Assembly: GCF_004010195.1 (NCBI RefSeq)
Contig: NC_057749.1
Span: forward strand, 15,433,726-15,474,053
Reading direction: 5' to 3'
Source of the DNA: Chiloscyllium plagiosum
Lineage: Eukaryota
Length of the DNA stretch: 40,328 nucleotides
Below, piece after piece: positions 3,535 to 39,064 of the stretch (positions are counted from its first letter, which is position 1; every line of letters starts with the position of its first letter). The translations under genes were made by a program, and so were the position numbers. Under the pieces are notes generated by a model that worked only from the letters and a program-made list of their open reading frames with translations, was not told the origin of the DNA and made no database searches.

Positions 3535-3715
3535 AGCAACGCGCTAGGCCCCGGTTTCCAAGCAACCGGCAAGATGCTGTCAATCATGGCAGGAAACCGG
3601 CCAATCAGAGCAAAGAGGGGCGGGGACTCTCCTCACAACCAGCCAATCAGCGCAGGGAGAGGGTGGGATTTACCTGCCTCCAGGTAAGACCCAGTGAAAA
3701 CCATTACCTCAGGTG
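3535..3715. promoter_or_regulatory. TATA-less promoter: RFX X-box, two CCAAT boxes, GC box
   Basis: GTTTCCAAGCAAC 3554-3566 (X-box consensus), CCAATCAG at 3601 and 3643, GGGGCGGGG 3617-3625, local GC/CpG rise, about 180-270 bp upstream of the ATG at 3376. Confidence 0.75.
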
Positions 3716-3794
3716 GGTTTGGAAGGACAGTGGCAGGTGGAGACCACAACCTTTCAGGGAACGAAAACATCTAAAATACGAGGATAGTAGAATG

Positions 3795-9100: not shown

Positions 9101-9499
9101 GAAATCCATCACTTCTCTCTCTCTCCATTTCTAAAGAAAAGTTATGTTGAACTTGAAACCTCAAGCCTATTTCTCTCTCCATAGGAGCGGCCGAACCTAC
9201 TCTGTTTCTCCAGCACTTTTTGTTTTTATGATATAAACAGGGAACCAATCAGTGCCTCTCGATCACTGCAGACCCTGGGCCTTCGTAAGCCTCAATGACC
9301 ATGCAGGTAAATACCAAGGGTAAACTCTTTCAACAAACTCTGAATAAACCTGAGAGGAATCAGCCATGAGCTGAGCTCAGAATGTGCTCTTTTCAATCAG
9401 TTAGACCAACCAACTTTACAAGGGTCAGACTAGAGTGAACATGGCTCTAGAATACATTGTCCTCTCATTCTGATCAACTATGTAACTGCAGGGTCCAAA

Positions 9500-17750: not shown

Positions 17751-18969
17751 TCTTTTTGAAAAACTGCCCACACTAAGGCTGGCTGGCACTACCAACATTC
17801 CTTTCAAGCATAATCTTTGAGTTGAACTTGAGATCAGTTCCAGAGATGAAATGTTTGTAATTTGACACTGCTTGTTGCTGGCCCAGAATGAACCATGTTT
17901 AATTTCTCCTGCCATGAACAAAAATGTAACTAATTTATTAAAATGTAGGGGATAGTCAAATGGGGCGTTGCATATTGAATGCATTTATAAAGCACCAGCA
18001 ATATGATAAAACATGGTAAGACACTTCACAGGAGCAGACTCTTAGCCAATGAAGGATACTTTAGTGCAGCTGTTGAAAAGGTTGGTGAGTGAAGTCCATT
18101 TTAGAGAGTCGGAACCTTAAAAGGGAGGGAGTGAGAAGTGGAGATGTTGAAGTGGAGGAAACCAAATCATAAGGTCTGGACAGTTCGGGTATGACTGCCT
18201 GTGGTGAGAGTGAAGGAAGTCAGGGTTATACAAGAAGTCATTGTTACAGAGCTAACTCAACTTAAAGGGATGCTTTGGGTATATAAAGGAGGATTTGAAC
18301 TGGAAAAGAAAAAGGGGAAACAGGGATGGGGAAAATAAAGGAGGAAGAATGAAAGAAGGACTATGGAAATAAAGCTGTGGTAAATGAATGATGAAACTGA
18401 TTATGAAAAAGTATCTAACTCTCTAAGAGATTGTATTTTGTTCAAGTTCCTGTTCAAAGATGAATTATCTGCAGAAATATTACATTTATCATACTGTTTT
18501 TCTTTTAACAGCCTAGTAATGCAACAACATTCAACAATCATAGGGTAAACGCAGTTCAGCGATGGCTTCCCTCATCTTCAGAACCAGAGGCAGTGGGTCA
18601 TGTCACTTACTGAAAACTTTCTCTGAATACCTTTCAGTCGGGGGAAAGAGAGAGTGAAGGCAGCTGGTGACCAGTTTTGCAACAGACAGTCACTTTCACC
18701 TGGAGCACCATAAAATTAAATTAACATTAAAATAAATCAAAGCGAATTTTTGAAAGAAAAATGATCTTACAAAGTTCTTTAAATAATAATGGCACACATT
18801 CCAATCATAAGCTAAAACATGTTTAAATCTTATTTAAATAATTGAGAGTGCTTGCTTTATCTAAAATTAACAGGTTAACTTCAGTACTATAGTCAGTCTG
18901 GGATTTGTGACTTCATACACTATATATGTTTGATAATTAATCTCCTTATAGATTTTTTTAAAAATCACT

Positions 18970-19582
18970 ATGTTCAAGTATGTTATGGCACATTTCTGGA
19001 ACAGGTGGGACTTGAACCTAGATCTCCTATCATAGAATCTCTATAGTGTGAAAGCAGGCCATTTGGCCCATCAAGAGCATCCCATCCAGACTCACCCCCT
19101 ACCCTATCCCTGTAACTCTGTGTTTCCCATTGCCAATCCACTTAACCTGCACATCATTGGACGGTGGGAGAAAATTGGAACACCTGGAGGAAACCCATGC
19201 AGACATGGGGAGAATGTGTAAACTCCATGCAGTTACCTGAGAGTGGAACCCAGGTCCCTGACACTGTGAGGCAGCAGTACCAACCACTAAGCCACCATGC
19301 CATCCTAGTGAGCTTCATGCCGTACCTAGTCCATAGGTAAGGACACTACCACTGCATAACAAGACACAATAATATTACAGATATTTTCTAACCCACCTGT
19401 TCAGAGATGTTATGACGCACCTCTGCAGCAGGTGGGACTTGATCTCTGTCTCTGGCTCAGAGGTAGGAGCTCTGAGCTCAAAACGTTAACTCTTTTTTCT
19501 CTCCAGCCAGATTGGTTGAGTTTCCCGAGAAATTTTTCTGTTTTCGTTTGTTCGGAACACTACCGCTACTCCACAAGAGCCT
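18970..19582 (-). mobile_element. Nested cluster: two short tRNA-like SINEs, one interrupted by an HE1 SINE (about 19031-19305), one by a Penelope-derived unit (about 19475-19553)
   Basis: The uninterrupted reference copy at about 21830-21930 aligns across both insertions. Confidence 0.65.
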
Positions 19583-19714
19583 TCAGTGCGTTTGTCTATT
19601 TGTTTTGATGTTTTAATTTTGAAATTAAACCATGGTCCCAACGAATACACGCAGTATGATGGTTCCTTCTGCCGTGGCCACCCACATTTGGAGATAAGTG
19701 GCAAGGTCTGCCAG

Positions 19715-19800
19715 GGTTGGGCGTGTCAGCATCCTGGACCAGTTATGTGGACAAGTTTGGTGATTATAAAAGGAGGGAGCGATGGCCCATTCAGACAACA
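19715..19800 (+). promoter_or_regulatory. CART-like core promoter
   Basis: TATAAAA at 19765-19771, GGGCGTG Sp/KLF-like box at about 19719, Inr-like TTCAGA about 25 nt past the TATA start, local CpG enrichment. Confidence 0.7.
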
Positions 19801-19803
19801 CCC

Positions 19804-19822
19804 GTGTGTGTGTGTGTGTGTG
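19804..19822. repeat. (GT)n microsatellite in the CART-like 5'UTR
   Basis: Directly visible GT run. Confidence 0.9.
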
Positions 19823-19878
19823 AGTGAGAGAAGTCACTGCAAAGGTTCAAAGACGACGCAGCCGGTGCTTTCAGGACC

Positions 19879-19993
19879 ACGGAGAGTTCCAGTGTTCACC
19901 TGCTCCTGCTGGGTTCTGGTTTCCAACTACCGCTGTGCCAGGGACAGTCCAGGGATACCATCTCCGCGGAAGATTACCCAAGAAACAGAACTG
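19879..19993 (+). pseudogene. CARTPT: CART-like exon 1 coding part (ACG start, frameshift)
   Basis: ACC-ACG-G then ESSSVHLLLLGSGFQLPLCQGQSRDTISAEDY (cf. human MESSRVRLL). The +1 frame ends QETEL (cf. human HEKEL) at donor CTG|gtcagt (19994). 115 nt = phase 1, whereas exon 2 at 22317 needs phase 0. Confidence 0.75.
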
Positions 19994-22900
19994 GTCAGTC
20001 TTAGTAGCACTTCTTATTCTAGCATTGTATTGACTCACCATTTCGCCCAGCCCTTGATACAGTCCCCTCCGTTCCCCTTCTACCCAATAACTCCGCTGCA
20101 CCTGCCACGCTCCCGCATCTTCATCTCCCCAGTCTGCGGAGTGCTGCAGTTGTTTCAAGGTTCTGCTCCTTTCAAAACCATTTCCAATCTAACTTCGAGT
20201 CGGTGTTCCAGTCCAGCTCATTTGCGCTGGAATTTCTATTCCCCCCGCCCCCCCCCCCCAGTCATATTCTCCCCATTGAAATAATCTTGTTCATTTCATT
20301 TGCAAAGAGATTACACTTCCGATTCCAGTTCCTTTCATTATTTTCATTGGAGTCTGGGAACGCGATAACTTAATTTTTGTTTTTAATTTCTTAGTTTCTT
20401 GGTTTTGCAGTTTTGCCTTGCCAGAGCTGTGTGTTTTGCTCAGTTAATCCTCTGAAAAGGAGAGGAATGCAGAAGAGCTTAGAGATTAATTGATTTAGAA
20501 GTTTTGGATTTTTCTCACAGTCATTTCTGAAAGTATTGGTGTTTTAGTTGTTTGGAATAAGATCTCTGACTCCGAGAACTATGTTGCACCTTAATTATTG
20601 GTGCAAAAGGTCTGACTCACAAGAACATCTCTTTTTAAAAAGATGCAAAATAAAGAAGTGAAACTTTTAAGTAAATTGTATCTACAGATTTAAAAGTAAG
20701 TGTAGACATTTTCACATGGCGTAAGCGTCTCTACATTTCAGGCACTTCTCTCTGATAAATCAGATTCAGAAATTTTGTCAGGTGTGACCCAGAGAAAGGC
20801 ACACTTTTTTTGTGAAGTAGACTGGATAATTTCCGATAAAAAAAACTTGTTTCTTTAAATATCCCAATTATATCTTTGATATTCCTCAGTCTTGATGAAA
20901 TGTACCAACCTGAAGTGTTAACACTGACTTTCTCTTCACAGTCACAGCCTGGCCTGTCAAGACTCTTCAACACTTGGTGTTTAGTTCAGATATCCAAAAT
21001 CCACTAACTTTTTACTTCTGCAAATGAAATATTTGAGTAGATAGACTATTGATTTTAATGTAAAAGATACCTTAATTTTTATAATTATTTTATTTACGTC
21101 AGGGTATTTTTCTATGCTGTGTACTTATTAACATGACAAGAATGGATATCTCAAAAATGGTTACACCACAGAAGAAGGCTATTCAGCCCATTGTATCTGA
21201 CCTGGGTCTTTGTAGTGCCATTTCACTGCCTTCACCCCATGACATTTCATTCTTCCTTTTCAAATAATGATTCAATTCCCCTTCAAAAGCCTCAGTTAAA
21301 CCTACCCCACCACACTGTCAGGTTATATATTCCAGATTCTAATCATTTGCTATGTTAAATAGTTTTTACTCACGTCATCATTGCCTCTTTAAATCTGTTT
21401 CCTATTAAATCCTCAATCTTACCAGCACAGGTTACAGCTTTTGCCTATGAACTCTGCGTAGACAGTTATTATTTTCTAATGGGAGATTGATTGGATCTAA
21501 TGGTTACTTTGTCACTGTATATTTGGAATAGATCAGATGATAACACATCACTTCGACAGAGGCTGCCAAGGATACTCCAGGGCTTAAGTAAACAACCTAG
21601 TCTAAATTATGATCATTCATTCTACTATTGATTGCAGAATCATGGTGTGTGCAAACAGCTTTGATGTTGAGTCCATAACAGCAGTAATTGCACACTCAGT
21701 CAGTGTCTTTATACTTCAATCTATGTGAAGTGCTTAGGGACTGTGCTGAAATAAAATATGGTGAAGTGTTAGATAAAGGAAAGACTTTCTTTTGGTATTT
21801 GTGTCAAATTTTAAACATTTTCTAATCAAACTGTTCAGAGATGTTATGATACTTCTCTGGAGCAGATGGGTCTCGAACTCGGACATCCTAGCTCAGAGGT
21901 GGGGACGCCGCCACTGTACCACAAGAAGCTGTAGTGTCCAAATACACTAGTGTTGAGTTTTCCATGTAATAATGAGGGACTGTTAGAATGATGGAGGTGA
22001 CTACTAAGTCCTTTGTTCTGGCAGTTTAGATTGACATTAGTTATTCCATGAAGCTATCCCAGAAAATTAGAGCATTCTCCTGTCAAGCATTCATCCATCA
22101 TTTGACCACCAAATACAAGATTATTCATCCCATTACTATTTAAAGAATCTTGCCATGTGCTTTCTTGCATTCAAAATCTGGATAACATGGTTAAATCTGT
22201 GAGGTGCATAGGAACCATTATGGAATGTAATGATGTGTTAGCTCCATGAAAATCTTGTATTTGTAAATGTTTGTCAAGTAGCAGGAGAACTGATTTTTAA
22301 ACTTTTTAGTTAACAGTTTGCAGCCATGGAAGATATACTCAGGAAAATCCAAAACAGCAGGCTTTCCTCCTATGAGAAAAAGGCTGGACAAATCCCTATG
22401 GTGAGTTTTGGACCAAACCATTTTATTGGCTTTCCGTAGCTGAGTCTATCCCTGGCTGAGGTAATGAAATGAGAAATAATCAGTTGGATCATCAAGACCA
22501 TTCCTTTTTCAGTTCTTACCTCAATCAATGACAACACCAATAAGATTTCTTCTTACGCCAGATCAATCTAACAGATGTATTAAAATATTGCTCCCTTTTG
22601 TGAACAAGTTAAGTTTGACTTTATAGCTTTAATAAGGAACTTATTGTTTGACTTTAAAGAGTCAGTTCATATCACACTATTGGTGAATGAAATTAGTTCT
22701 TAATATTGAGCAAAATTAATTGTTCCATATTTCCATTTTTTTTGCCAGATTAAAATATCATGCATAGTAAAAAGTTTAAATTTACCTGACACATTTCCAA
22801 ACATGACAATTCAAGTGTTATCTTGCTTTCGCTTCAATCCCTCCAGTATTTACAATATACTATAAGAGAGAATTATCATAAATGAGTTCAGGCTGTGAAT

Positions 22901-23741
22901 CTCAGATTATTCTATTGAGGGGATATCTCAACCAAACACATACAAGACCCAAAAATGACCAGACCTGGAATTCCCTCCCTAATGGCATTGTGGGTAAACC
23001 TACAGCAGGTGGACTGTGGAGGTTTAAGACGGCAGCTCACCACCACCTTCTCAAGGGTAACTCAACACAGGCAATAAATGCTGGCCCAGCTAGCAATGCC
23101 CACATCCCACAAATGAATAAATAAAATAAAATAATTTGAGTCTGTCACCCACAGTCGAGATCCAGTTTCCATATTTTGTTTTCTATCCAATAGCTTCTTC
23201 AAATACAATCTCCTTGCAGACATTAAAAAAATCTATTATTACCACAAGATACAGTGTACCTGTTGTACATTGAGAATAATTGAATTATGTATTCTATCTT
23301 TGTTTATTAATTTGAACTGAGGCTCTTTCTGGTGAATGTAAAGATCCCATACAGGTGTTCAAAGAGCAGGAAGATTCTCCCGGCCTACAACCAACATCAC
23401 TGTAGCCTGGTTATTATCAACTTACAGTTTGTGAGAGTTTGCTGTGTACAGACTGAGATCCCCTATTTCTTACATTGTAATTGCAGAGACATTTCGATAA
23501 TTACTTCATCGCCTGTAATACATTTTGACACTTATAAGTCAATATAAAACTGCGAACCTAAGTGGGTTGCTATTTTAAAGCATTTGAGTGTTGGAAACCT
23601 GACTGATCAATGACTCTATTTGTGTTTTGTCAGTGTGATAGCAGAGAGAGATGTGCTGTCAAGCAAGGACCCAGGACTGGTAAACTGTGTGACTGTGCCA
23701 GGGGAACCATCTGCAACTCCTTCCTCCTCAAATGTAGTTGA
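19879..23741 (+). CDS. CARTPT: CART prepropeptide-like gene (3 exons; exon 1 lesioned, possibly an incipient pseudogene)
   Basis: Spliced exons 2+3 read [63 protein letters not shown]. This aligns without gaps to human CART [63 protein letters not shown]. Probably a paralogue rather than the 1:1 orthologue. Confidence 0.93.
22317..22400 (+). CDS. CARTPT: CART-like exon 2 (84 bp)
   Basis: Acceptor ttaacag|, donor ATG|gtgagt; 28 codons [28 protein letters not shown] with the YEKK processing site. Confidence 0.92.
22965..23133 (+). mobile_element. LINE 3' tail fragment in CART intron 2
   Basis: Same tail family, ending in (AATAA)n. Confidence 0.75.
23312..23550 (+). mobile_element. Deu-domain SINE fragment in CART intron 2
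   Basis: GGTGAATGTAAAGATCCCAT..AAGAGCAGG..CAACCAACATCACT core. Confidence 0.6.
23634..23741 (+). CDS. CARTPT: CART-like exon 3 coding part (six-cysteine active domain)
   Basis: Acceptor ttttgtcag|; [35 protein letters not shown] then TGA at 23739-23741. Confidence 0.96.
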   Translation, partial: [35 protein letters not shown]

Positions 23742-24019: not shown

Positions 24020-24025
24020 AATAAA
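24020..24025 (+). terminator. Candidate poly(A) signal of the CART-like gene
   Basis: First AATAAA downstream of the stop codon (about 280 nt). Confidence 0.45.
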
Positions 24026-26698: not shown

Positions 26699-27198
26699 NN
26701 NNNNNNNNNNNNNNNNNNNNNNNNNNNNNNNNNNNNNNNNNNNNNNNNNNNNNNNNNNNNNNNNNNNNNNNNNNNNNNNNNNNNNNNNNNNNNNNNNNNN
26801 NNNNNNNNNNNNNNNNNNNNNNNNNNNNNNNNNNNNNNNNNNNNNNNNNNNNNNNNNNNNNNNNNNNNNNNNNNNNNNNNNNNNNNNNNNNNNNNNNNNN
26901 NNNNNNNNNNNNNNNNNNNNNNNNNNNNNNNNNNNNNNNNNNNNNNNNNNNNNNNNNNNNNNNNNNNNNNNNNNNNNNNNNNNNNNNNNNNNNNNNNNNN
27001 NNNNNNNNNNNNNNNNNNNNNNNNNNNNNNNNNNNNNNNNNNNNNNNNNNNNNNNNNNNNNNNNNNNNNNNNNNNNNNNNNNNNNNNNNNNNNNNNNNNN
27101 NNNNNNNNNNNNNNNNNNNNNNNNNNNNNNNNNNNNNNNNNNNNNNNNNNNNNNNNNNNNNNNNNNNNNNNNNNNNNNNNNNNNNNNNNNNNNNNNNN
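26699..27198. other. Assembly gap (500 N)
   Basis: Exactly 500 N. Confidence 1.
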
Positions 27199-34939: not shown

Positions 34940-36880
34940 ATAGAACATAGAACATTACAGTTCAGTACAGGCCCTTCGAACCTCGATGTTGTGCCGACCT
35001 GTCATACCAATCTGAAGCCCATCTCACCTGCACTATTCCATGTGCGTCCATATGCTTGTCCAATGACGACTTAAATGTACTTAAAGTTGGCGAATCTAGT
35101 ACTGTTGTAGGCAAAGCAATCCATGCCCTTAGTACACTCTGAGTAACAAAACTACTCTGACATCTGTCCTATGTCTATCACCCCTCAATTGAAAGCTATG
35201 CCACCACGTGCTCGCCGTCACCATTCTTGGAAAAAGGCTCACCTTGTCGACCCTATCTAACCCTCTGATTATCTTATATGTCTCTATTAAGTCACCTCTC
35301 AAACTTCTTCTTTCTATCGGAAACAATCACAAGTCCCTCTACACGAGGCAACATCCCAGTAAATCTCCTCTGCACACTTTCAAAGCTTCCACATCCTTCG
35401 TATGATGCAGTGACCAGAACTGTACACAATGCTACAAGTGCTGCCGCACTAGAGTTTTGTACAGCTGTACCATAACCTCATGTCTCCGGAACTCGCTGCC
35501 TCTATTAAAAAAAGCTAAAACACTGTATGCCTTCTTAACAACCCTGTCAACCTTGGGAGCAACTTTCATGGATCTGTGTACCTGGAGACCGAGATCTCTC
35601 TGCTCATCTACACTACCAAGAAAATTACCATTAGCCTATTACTTTGCATTCCGGTTACTCTGACCAAAGTGAATCACCTCACACTTGTCCGCACTAAAGC
35701 TCATTTTCCACCTCTCAGCCCAGTTCTGCACCTTATCTATGTCTTTCTGTAACCTAAACATCCTTCGTCACTATCCACAACTCTACCGACCGTAGTCTCG
35801 CCTGCAAATTTACTAACTCACTCTTCTAAACCCTCATCCAGCACGATTAGAAAAATGACGAACAGAAGTGGATCCAACACCGACCCTTGCGGTACACCAC
35901 TGGTAACTGGACTCCAGGAAGAACATTTCCCATCAACCACCGCCCTCTGTCTTCTTTCAGCAAGCCAATTACTGATCCAAACTGCTATATTTCTCACAAT
36001 CCAATTCCTCCCCATTTTGTACAATCGCCTATTGTGGGGAACCTTATCGAACGCCTTGCTTAAATTCATATGCACATCAATCGGTTTACTCTCATCTACC
36101 TGTTTCATCGCCTTTTCAAAGAACTCAATAAGGTTTGGAAGGCACGACCTACCCTTCACAAAACCGTGTTGATATATCCCTAATAAAATTATTCGTTCCT
36201 AGATCATTATAAATCCTATATTTTATATCCTTATCCAACACTTTACCAACAACTGAAGTAAGGCTCACTGGTCTATAATTGCCAGGATTGTCTCTACACC
36301 TTCAACAGGGGAACCACATTTTATATCCTCCAGTCTTCTGGCACGATTTCTGTTAAAAATGACGTTTTAAAGATCAATGCCAAAGGCTCGGCAATCTCCT
36401 CGCTAGCTTCCCAGAGGATCCTAGGATAAAACCAAACCGGCCCAGGGGACTTATCTATTTTCACACTCTGCAGGATTTCTAATACATTTCCCTTGTGAAC
36501 TTCATCACACATAGTCTAGTAGCCTGCATATCAGTAATCTCCTCGACAACGTTGTCGTTTTCTAGAGTGAATACTGTTGAAAAGTATTCATTTAGTGCTT
36601 TACCTATCTCCTCTGACTCTACACACAACTTCCCACTACTATCCGTGATTGGCCCTAATCTTAATCTCGTCATTCGTTTATTACTTAAGTACCTGTAGAA
36701 AGCCTTAGGGTTTACCCTGATCCTATCTGCCAACAACTTCTCATGCTTCCTCCAGTCTGTTCTGTCTCTTTAGGTCTTTCCTGGCTACTTTGTGACCCTC
36801 AAGAGCCCTAACTGAGCCTTCACATCTCATCCTAACATAAGCCTTCTTCCTCTTGACAAGAGATTCCACTTCCTCCGTAA
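34940..36880 (-). mobile_element. CR1 LINE, 5'-truncated (RT to 3' tail)
   Basis: [48 protein letters not shown] tail. Confidence 0.92.
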
Positions 36881-38972: not shown

Positions 38973-39064
38973 NNNNNNNNNNNNNNNNNNNNNNNNNNNN
39001 NNNNNNNNNNNNNNNNNNNNNNNTATCTATCTATCTATCTATCCAACGTTCTATCTATCTATCC

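Follow-up and report, generated by a model that had tools for sequence, protein, structure and literature searches.

A CART4-type gene of the shark Chiloscyllium plagiosum with two derived lesions in exon 1: a probable recent unitary pseudogene

The stretch of the Chiloscyllium plagiosum genome analysed here (40,328 nt of contig NC_057749.1, called the window below and used as the reference for all coordinates) contains an orthologue of the gene type that Cai et al. 2015 call CART4. The codon at its initiator position is ACG instead of ATG and 17 nt are missing near the end of its first exon. Both lesions, their absence from two related species, the single-copy status of exon 1 and the orthology of the gene are direct observations. 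We put at roughly 0.85 the probability that this CART4-type gene recently became a unitary pseudogene, or a null allele, through these two derived exon 1 mutations.

In the mechanism that we propose from the comparison of sequences, a T-to-C change would have turned the initiator ATG into ACG, and the 17-nt deletion would then have put the signal peptide out of frame with the remaining part of the precursor. No frame would join the signal peptide to the CART domain after canonical splicing, so that no secreted CART4 peptide could be made. The loss of function that we infer for this gene would be too recent for further decay, which would explain why exons 2 and 3 are still open; it would leave two other CART genes intact in the same animal.

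Layout of the gene and its place in the CART family

The gene has the three exons typical of the family and lies on the + strand of the window; its exon 1 ends at 19993 and is followed by exon 2 (22317-22400) and exon 3 (23634-23741). Its features, and those close to it, are listed below (a slash marks an exon border).

19765..19771, + strand: TATA-like box (tataaaa), about 110 nt 5' of the lost start codon; presumed core promoter, from its position only
19805-19826: (GT)n microsatellite, 3' of the TATA-like box and 5' of the lost start codon
19879..19881, + strand: ACG in place of the initiator ATG (lesion 1), in the context ACCACGG (19876-19882)
19879..19993, + strand: what is left of coding exon 1 (signal peptide, start of the propeptide), with the donor CTG/gtcagt at its end
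19986..19987, + strand: junction of the 17-nt deletion (lesion 2, frameshift), placed from the cross-species contigs
22317..22400, + strand: exon 2, 84 nt, 28 codons, intact; borders cag/TTT ... ATG/gtgagt; KK site
22322..22324, + strand: possible alternative acceptor tttgcag/CC, a candidate for which the exon would start at 22324
23634..23741, + strand: exon 3, 35 codons plus TGA; borders gtcag/TGT ... TGA; CART peptide core, six Cys, ends KCS
24020..24025, + strand: first AATAAA 3' of the stop codon; candidate polyadenylation signal, motif match only

Both the exon 3 and the exon 2 frames are recognised by the Pfam model of CART (PF06373), at 62.3 and 29.6 bits respectively for a cut-off of 27. 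The six Cys of exon 3 share columns with those of 11 orthologues, the dibasic KK site (..YEKK..) is kept in exon 2, and all four splice sites are intact. Exons 2 and 3 are open and, when aligned to 7 shark orthologues, without indels. The preliminary description of this DNA, made from the window alone, was thus right to state that these two exons keep their size, their splice sites, the KK site and the six Cys. At the border between intron 1 and exon 2, three AG dinucleotides lie exactly 7 nt apart (22308-22323), and the possible exon starts are 22310, 22317 and 22324.

A search with the exon 3 frame retrieved 22 proteins, all CART-like and of 105-144 aa, which came from five sharks, a sturgeon, frogs, the coelacanth and a lungfish. 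The best matches were CART-like proteins of 105-110 aa, the Xenopus match being of 108 aa; cluster members add Cetorhinus and Scyliorhinus canicula to the CART4-type set. Comparison of the same frame with proteins of similar length gave no candidate. In the maximum-likelihood tree built on exons 2 and 3 (23 rows), the window gene falls within the CART4 clade (support 100/100) and, inside it, within the shark subclade (93/99). According to Cai et al. 2015 (PMC4436185), there were six ancestral CART genes, CART3 and CART4 adjoin on one scaffold in Xenopus and the coelacanth, the CART4 of Xenopus is of 108 aa, and the C-terminal signature of CART4 is KCI.

Three CART loci are found in the genome at E<=3.4e-7. 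Besides the window gene, there is an intact CART3-type gene about 114 kb downstream on the same contig, in tandem orientation (L006:2849-2992, 3654-3737, 9147-9251); its product is one residue off a protein annotated in a Chiloscyllium species, with which it groups in the tree, and this near-identity by itself makes a bamboo shark (family Hemiscylliidae) the most likely host. The third locus is an intact CART1-like gene, of the mammalian type, located on the minus strand of another contig (L007:2832-2692, 2247-2164, 835-731). Both of these genes have an ATG, a signal peptide and the KR and KK sites. In six other shark species, a CART3-type and a CART4-type protein are listed on a contig of equal size. 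The elephant shark likewise has three CART genes according to a 2026 paper (PMC13364575), where the CART numbering differs. As for synteny within the window, no neighbouring gene was found among the 22 of the 51 open frames of at least 90 aa that were scanned with Pfam, where only a reverse-transcriptase fragment passed the cut-off.

Other features of the window were noted. On the minus strand, 35818-36198 is an open frame, probably a LINE remnant, that encodes a reverse-transcriptase domain (RVT_1, 47.2 bits). Interspersed repeats, which are probably SINE-like elements, are present in both introns (21070-21206, 21755-21891 and 22851-23124); their summed contig depths range from 10^3 to 2.5x10^5 in all four of the sequencing runs described below (three species), with hundreds of loose ends. 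ARAGORN found no tRNA-like head in these repeats, and the tRNA and tandem-repeat scans returned nothing. Similar translated fragments recur on the minus strand at 18867-19040, 19375-19485 and 21734-21892. Two runs of N, at 26699-27198 (500 bases) and 38973-39023 (51 bases), are either assembly gaps or withheld stretches.

Two lesions in exon 1 and their absence in related species

The N-terminus encoded in the ACG frame resembles that of the shark orthologues: in tblastn, 7 out of 7 orthologue N-termini match the window from 19882 to 19977 or 20001 (E from 1.2e-9 to 1e-4). At the column of the ACG an initiator Met is found in 10 of the 11 aligned orthologues, the eleventh, a coelacanth protein, being without its N-terminus. 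The claim that the CART initiator codon is replaced by ACG, in the context ACCACGG, is therefore upheld by the bases at 19876-19882. The ACG frame continues as ..SAEDY-P-R-N-R-T and, when unspliced, meets a stop 9 nt into the intron. The end of the exon, ..QETEL/gtcagt, is read in the frame of 19979; it corresponds to the ..EKEL of the orthologues, but in the next register. The two frames differ by one base (19879 mod 3 = 1 and 19979 mod 3 = 2), as had been noted from the start.

The explanation first offered for this shift, a frameshifting deletion after SAEDY, turned out to be correct as to the event and imprecise as to its place: the deletion is real and removed 17 nt, and its site is behind 19986, i.e. 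three codons past ..SAEDY and not directly after it. The residues encoded by the missing nucleotides are present in 7 out of 7 shark orthologues, and the ends of the deletion carry AG, two bases of microhomology. A different, intact exon 1, which had been named as a possible refutation, was looked for. None was found: the N-termini of the 7 orthologues reveal no second exon 1 homologue in the 40-kb window at E<0.3 (tblastn), and the exon 1 DNA has a single match in the 3.56-Gb genome of the species, which makes it single-copy.

Contigs of four public sequencing runs were compared with the window between 19700 and 23800, the repeat stretch 19793-19836 being left out. Runs X1 and X5 are from the same species, run X9 is from a relative referred to as species B and run X16 from another, species C. 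For species B one contig extends over 19703-20259 and displays 19 substitutions in 557 nt (3.4% divergence); for species C, one contig over 19703-20231 displays 36 substitutions in 529 nt (6.8%). Both relatives read T at 19880, which makes the codon ATG, and both have 17 additional nt behind 19986 (one contig in each case, with a depth of 14.7 in species B and 20.3 in species C). When translated by hand, the additional nucleotides restore the register, so that the exon ends with ..DYPRN-SDSTEKEL/gt, to be compared with ..SDSAEKEL in other sharks. X9 and X16 have a cover gap at 23536-23672, where exon 3 begins, and contigs of both relatives span exon 2; within the gene, the states of the relatives given here are those of exon 1 and the TATA-like box.

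Same-species sequencing had been called for as a check against an assembly error in exon 1. The X1 contig that covers this region (19703-21196, depth 10.3) carries both lesions: it reads C at 19880 and is without the 17 nt. None of the differences listed between X1 and the window is in exon 1 and nine are elsewhere, so X1 is not a mere copy of the assembly. Cover of exon 1 within the species comes from X1 alone, which is possibly from the same project as the assembly, since X5, from a second study, has a gap at 19837-19973; it also has almost no cover at exon 2. Exon 3 is identical to that of the window in the contigs of both X1 and X5. At four of these nine positions (20868, 20963, 22060 and 22709) the letter of the window is unlike that of all four runs: either the assembled haplotype carries private alleles there or the consensus is wrong.

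Since the ATG and the 17 nt are found in both species B and species C, the T-to-C change and the deletion are derived and postdate the split from species B. Both lesions consequently arose in the lineage of the window species after its separation from the nearest relative sampled; the order in which they are placed here, and their date, are inferred. The suggestion of a recent, lineage-specific pseudogenisation, already present in the preliminary description, is supported by the ATG and the 17 in-frame nt of the two relatives and by the agreement of X1 with the window. Within the species, the lesions are seen in the assembly and in X1, a single run that may stem from the project of the assembly; the lesions may be fixed, or they may make up a null allele carried by just one animal or by a few.

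Reading frames, constraint and the alternative explanations

In a secreted precursor, the initiator Met and the signal peptide are in frame with the CART domain, an arrangement that the window gene lacks. After canonical splicing the ACG frame ends at a TGA in exon 2, so that initiation at the ACG alone would be no rescue. Non-AUG initiation, initially put forward as the alternative to pseudogenisation, thus fails as an explanation when taken by itself, the canonical splice being out of frame. The first AUG in the spliced transcript model is that of a conserved Met in exon 2 (22326, context GCAGCCATGG), from which 60 residues without a signal peptide would be translated. Two other candidates were rejected. 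The ATG at 19782, which is the sole ATG from the TATA-like box to the end of exon 1, lies 11 nt past the TATA-like box and leads into a frame of 13 codons in the third register. Among the alternative GT donors, only that at 19894 falls between two codons of the ACG frame, and its use would leave 5 codons.

Some features argue against a pseudogene. The gene has kept exons 2 and 3, its TATA-like box and its four splice sites intact, as would also fit a gene in use, and the acceptor at 22324 would restore the frame of an ACG-initiated protein. When exon 1 is joined to 22324, the ACG frame stays open across 300 nt and enters the CART frame, because the loss of 17 nt plus the skipping of 7 nt amounts to 24 nt, or 8 codons. 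The gene could in that case be in use after re-wiring, with an ACG start and a 99-codon precursor comprising both the signal peptide and the CART domain. Several points favour this: the context of the ACG is strong (A at -3 and G at +4), the sequence upstream of the candidate acceptor contains 12 pyrimidines out of 20 (against 13 out of 20 at the canonical site), and its AG is created by a lineage-specific Glu-to-Ala codon (GCA, then G) where 7 out of 7 other sharks have Glu. However, the canonical AG is 7 nt upstream of the 22324 site and another AG is 14 nt upstream, and it is the first AG past the branch point that is normally chosen in splicing. ACG initiates at a small fraction of the efficiency of AUG, the signal peptide that would be produced is less hydrophobic than any of the 11 others compared, and two improbable steps would have to coincide. 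We consider a re-wired gene very improbable. An error of assembly or consensus, by which the living animal would possess the ATG and the 17 bases, is scarcely credible to us. The four positions at which the window departs from every run indicate that some of its letters are private or wrong, and X5 brings no independent cover of exon 1; on the other side, X1 has both lesions and yet differs from the window elsewhere, and a substitution and a 17-nt loss situated outside simple repeats and within 110 nt would be improbable as two separate errors.

We judge an older decay unlikely: CART4 would have been functionless, or under relaxed constraint, already in the ancestor shared with species B and C, or in orectolobiforms generally, and the two lesions would be secondary. 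The window gene shows signs of relaxed constraint, which count in favour of the recent pseudogene as well as of an older decay. It has the longest terminal branch of the tree (0.42 versus a median of 0.08), and it departs from the 11 other orthologues at 2 of the 31 columns where these are all alike: the Gly of CDxG has become Arg, and the last residue is Ser in place of Ile. In exons 2 and 3, five sharks other than catsharks agree at 58 columns, and the window gene departs from them at 8 of these. The two catshark orthologues, which are annotated as intact, show 7-8 changes out of 58 at the same columns. In relative-rate tests the window gene is faster than that of Carcharodon (9:1 and 10:0, exact p of 0.02 and 0.002) but not faster than those of the catsharks (7:8 to 9:7, p of 0.8-1). 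As the catshark genes are similarly changed yet annotated as intact, acceleration alone is no proof of decay, be it old or recent. A further sign of relaxed constraint is the weak signal peptide: its hydrophobicity (Kyte-Doolittle mean over a 12-residue window) is 1.57, below the 2.34-3.27 of all 11 orthologues, and no apolar run of the N-terminal region exceeds 4 residues, where the orthologues reach 6-13. The Q (CAA) and P (CCG) of the hydrophobic core, which the preliminary description counted as damage, are indeed present; that they belong to the recent damage is doubtful, as no species B or C difference is listed at these codons, even if the lack of a listed difference is not identity. 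At 19922 both relatives have a Ser, which is even less hydrophobic than the Phe of the window. From these two observations, the weak signal peptide may predate both lesions, and CART4 was possibly decaying already in the whole clade; the polar core residues may be shared with relatives whose exon 1 is intact, and thus may lie outside the recent damage. Species B, for its part, reads C at 19765, the first T of the TATA-like box, which may signal drift in spite of its intact exon 1. Finally, none of the 22 CART4-type matches and none of the cluster members inspected is from an orectolobiform, whereas the CART3-type cluster contains four orectolobiform species; this absence comes from a word-based search and is weak evidence. 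An older decay is opposed by the ATG and the open, homologous exon 1 that species B and C have kept, by the lack of any stop or frameshift in exons 2 and 3 of the window, and by the catsharks, whose genes are intact with a similar number of changes.

Significance and comparison with known systems

Read as a recent unitary pseudogene, the CART4 gene of the window would be a loss caught early, at a stage where exon 1 alone is hit and where the sister species keep the start codon and the exon 1 frame. CART peptides regulate feeding in vertebrates and, to our knowledge, the non-mammalian CART paralogues have been barely studied; the gene could serve as a natural knockout through which to study the role of CART4 in sharks, and as a dated point for the study of how the ancestral set of CART genes thinned across lineages. 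For annotation, the locus should be labelled a pseudogene rather than be forced into a protein model with an imposed start. It is otherwise an ordinary case of gene decay. Were the re-wired reading true instead, the gene would encode a shortened yet complete secreted CART4 precursor. Among the papers searched, we found no publication on this gene, on CART in Chiloscyllium or on a CART4 pseudogene in elasmobranchs.

The closest known system is the CART4 of non-mammalian vertebrates, with which the window gene has in common the three-exon layout, the KK site, the six Cys and a CART3-type gene on the same contig. The orthologues are annotated as 'cocaine- and amphetamine-regulated transcript protein-like' in Carcharodon, Cetorhinus, Mustelus, Scyliorhinus, Pristiophorus, Heptranchias, sturgeon, frogs, coelacanth and lungfish, and the nearest of them is 86% identical to exons 2 and 3 of the window over 63 columns. 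All CART4-type orthologues are without a KR site, and so is the window gene. It differs from them by its lack of a start codon and of 17 nt of exon 1, by its weak signal peptide and by its C-terminus, which is KCS where 11 out of 11 orthologues have KCI. Mammalian CARTPT (the CART1 of Cai et al. 2015) and the CART1-like and CART3-like genes share with it the PF06373 domain, the exon structure and the cysteine pattern; the CART1-like and CART3-like paralogues of the same genome are 65-71% identical to it in exon 3.

As in a unitary pseudogene, the lesions of the window gene are derived, its relatives have the ancestral state and there is no intact second copy. Many lineage-specific losses of CART paralogues are inferred in tetrapods and teleosts by Cai et al. 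2015 (PMC4436185). In the lineage-specific unitary pseudogenes of neuropeptide and hormone genes, one old paralogue is disabled while the others are kept, as would be the case here; the CART4 gene of the window would differ from them by its early stage, with exon 1 alone being hit and sister species that are still ancestral at both sites.
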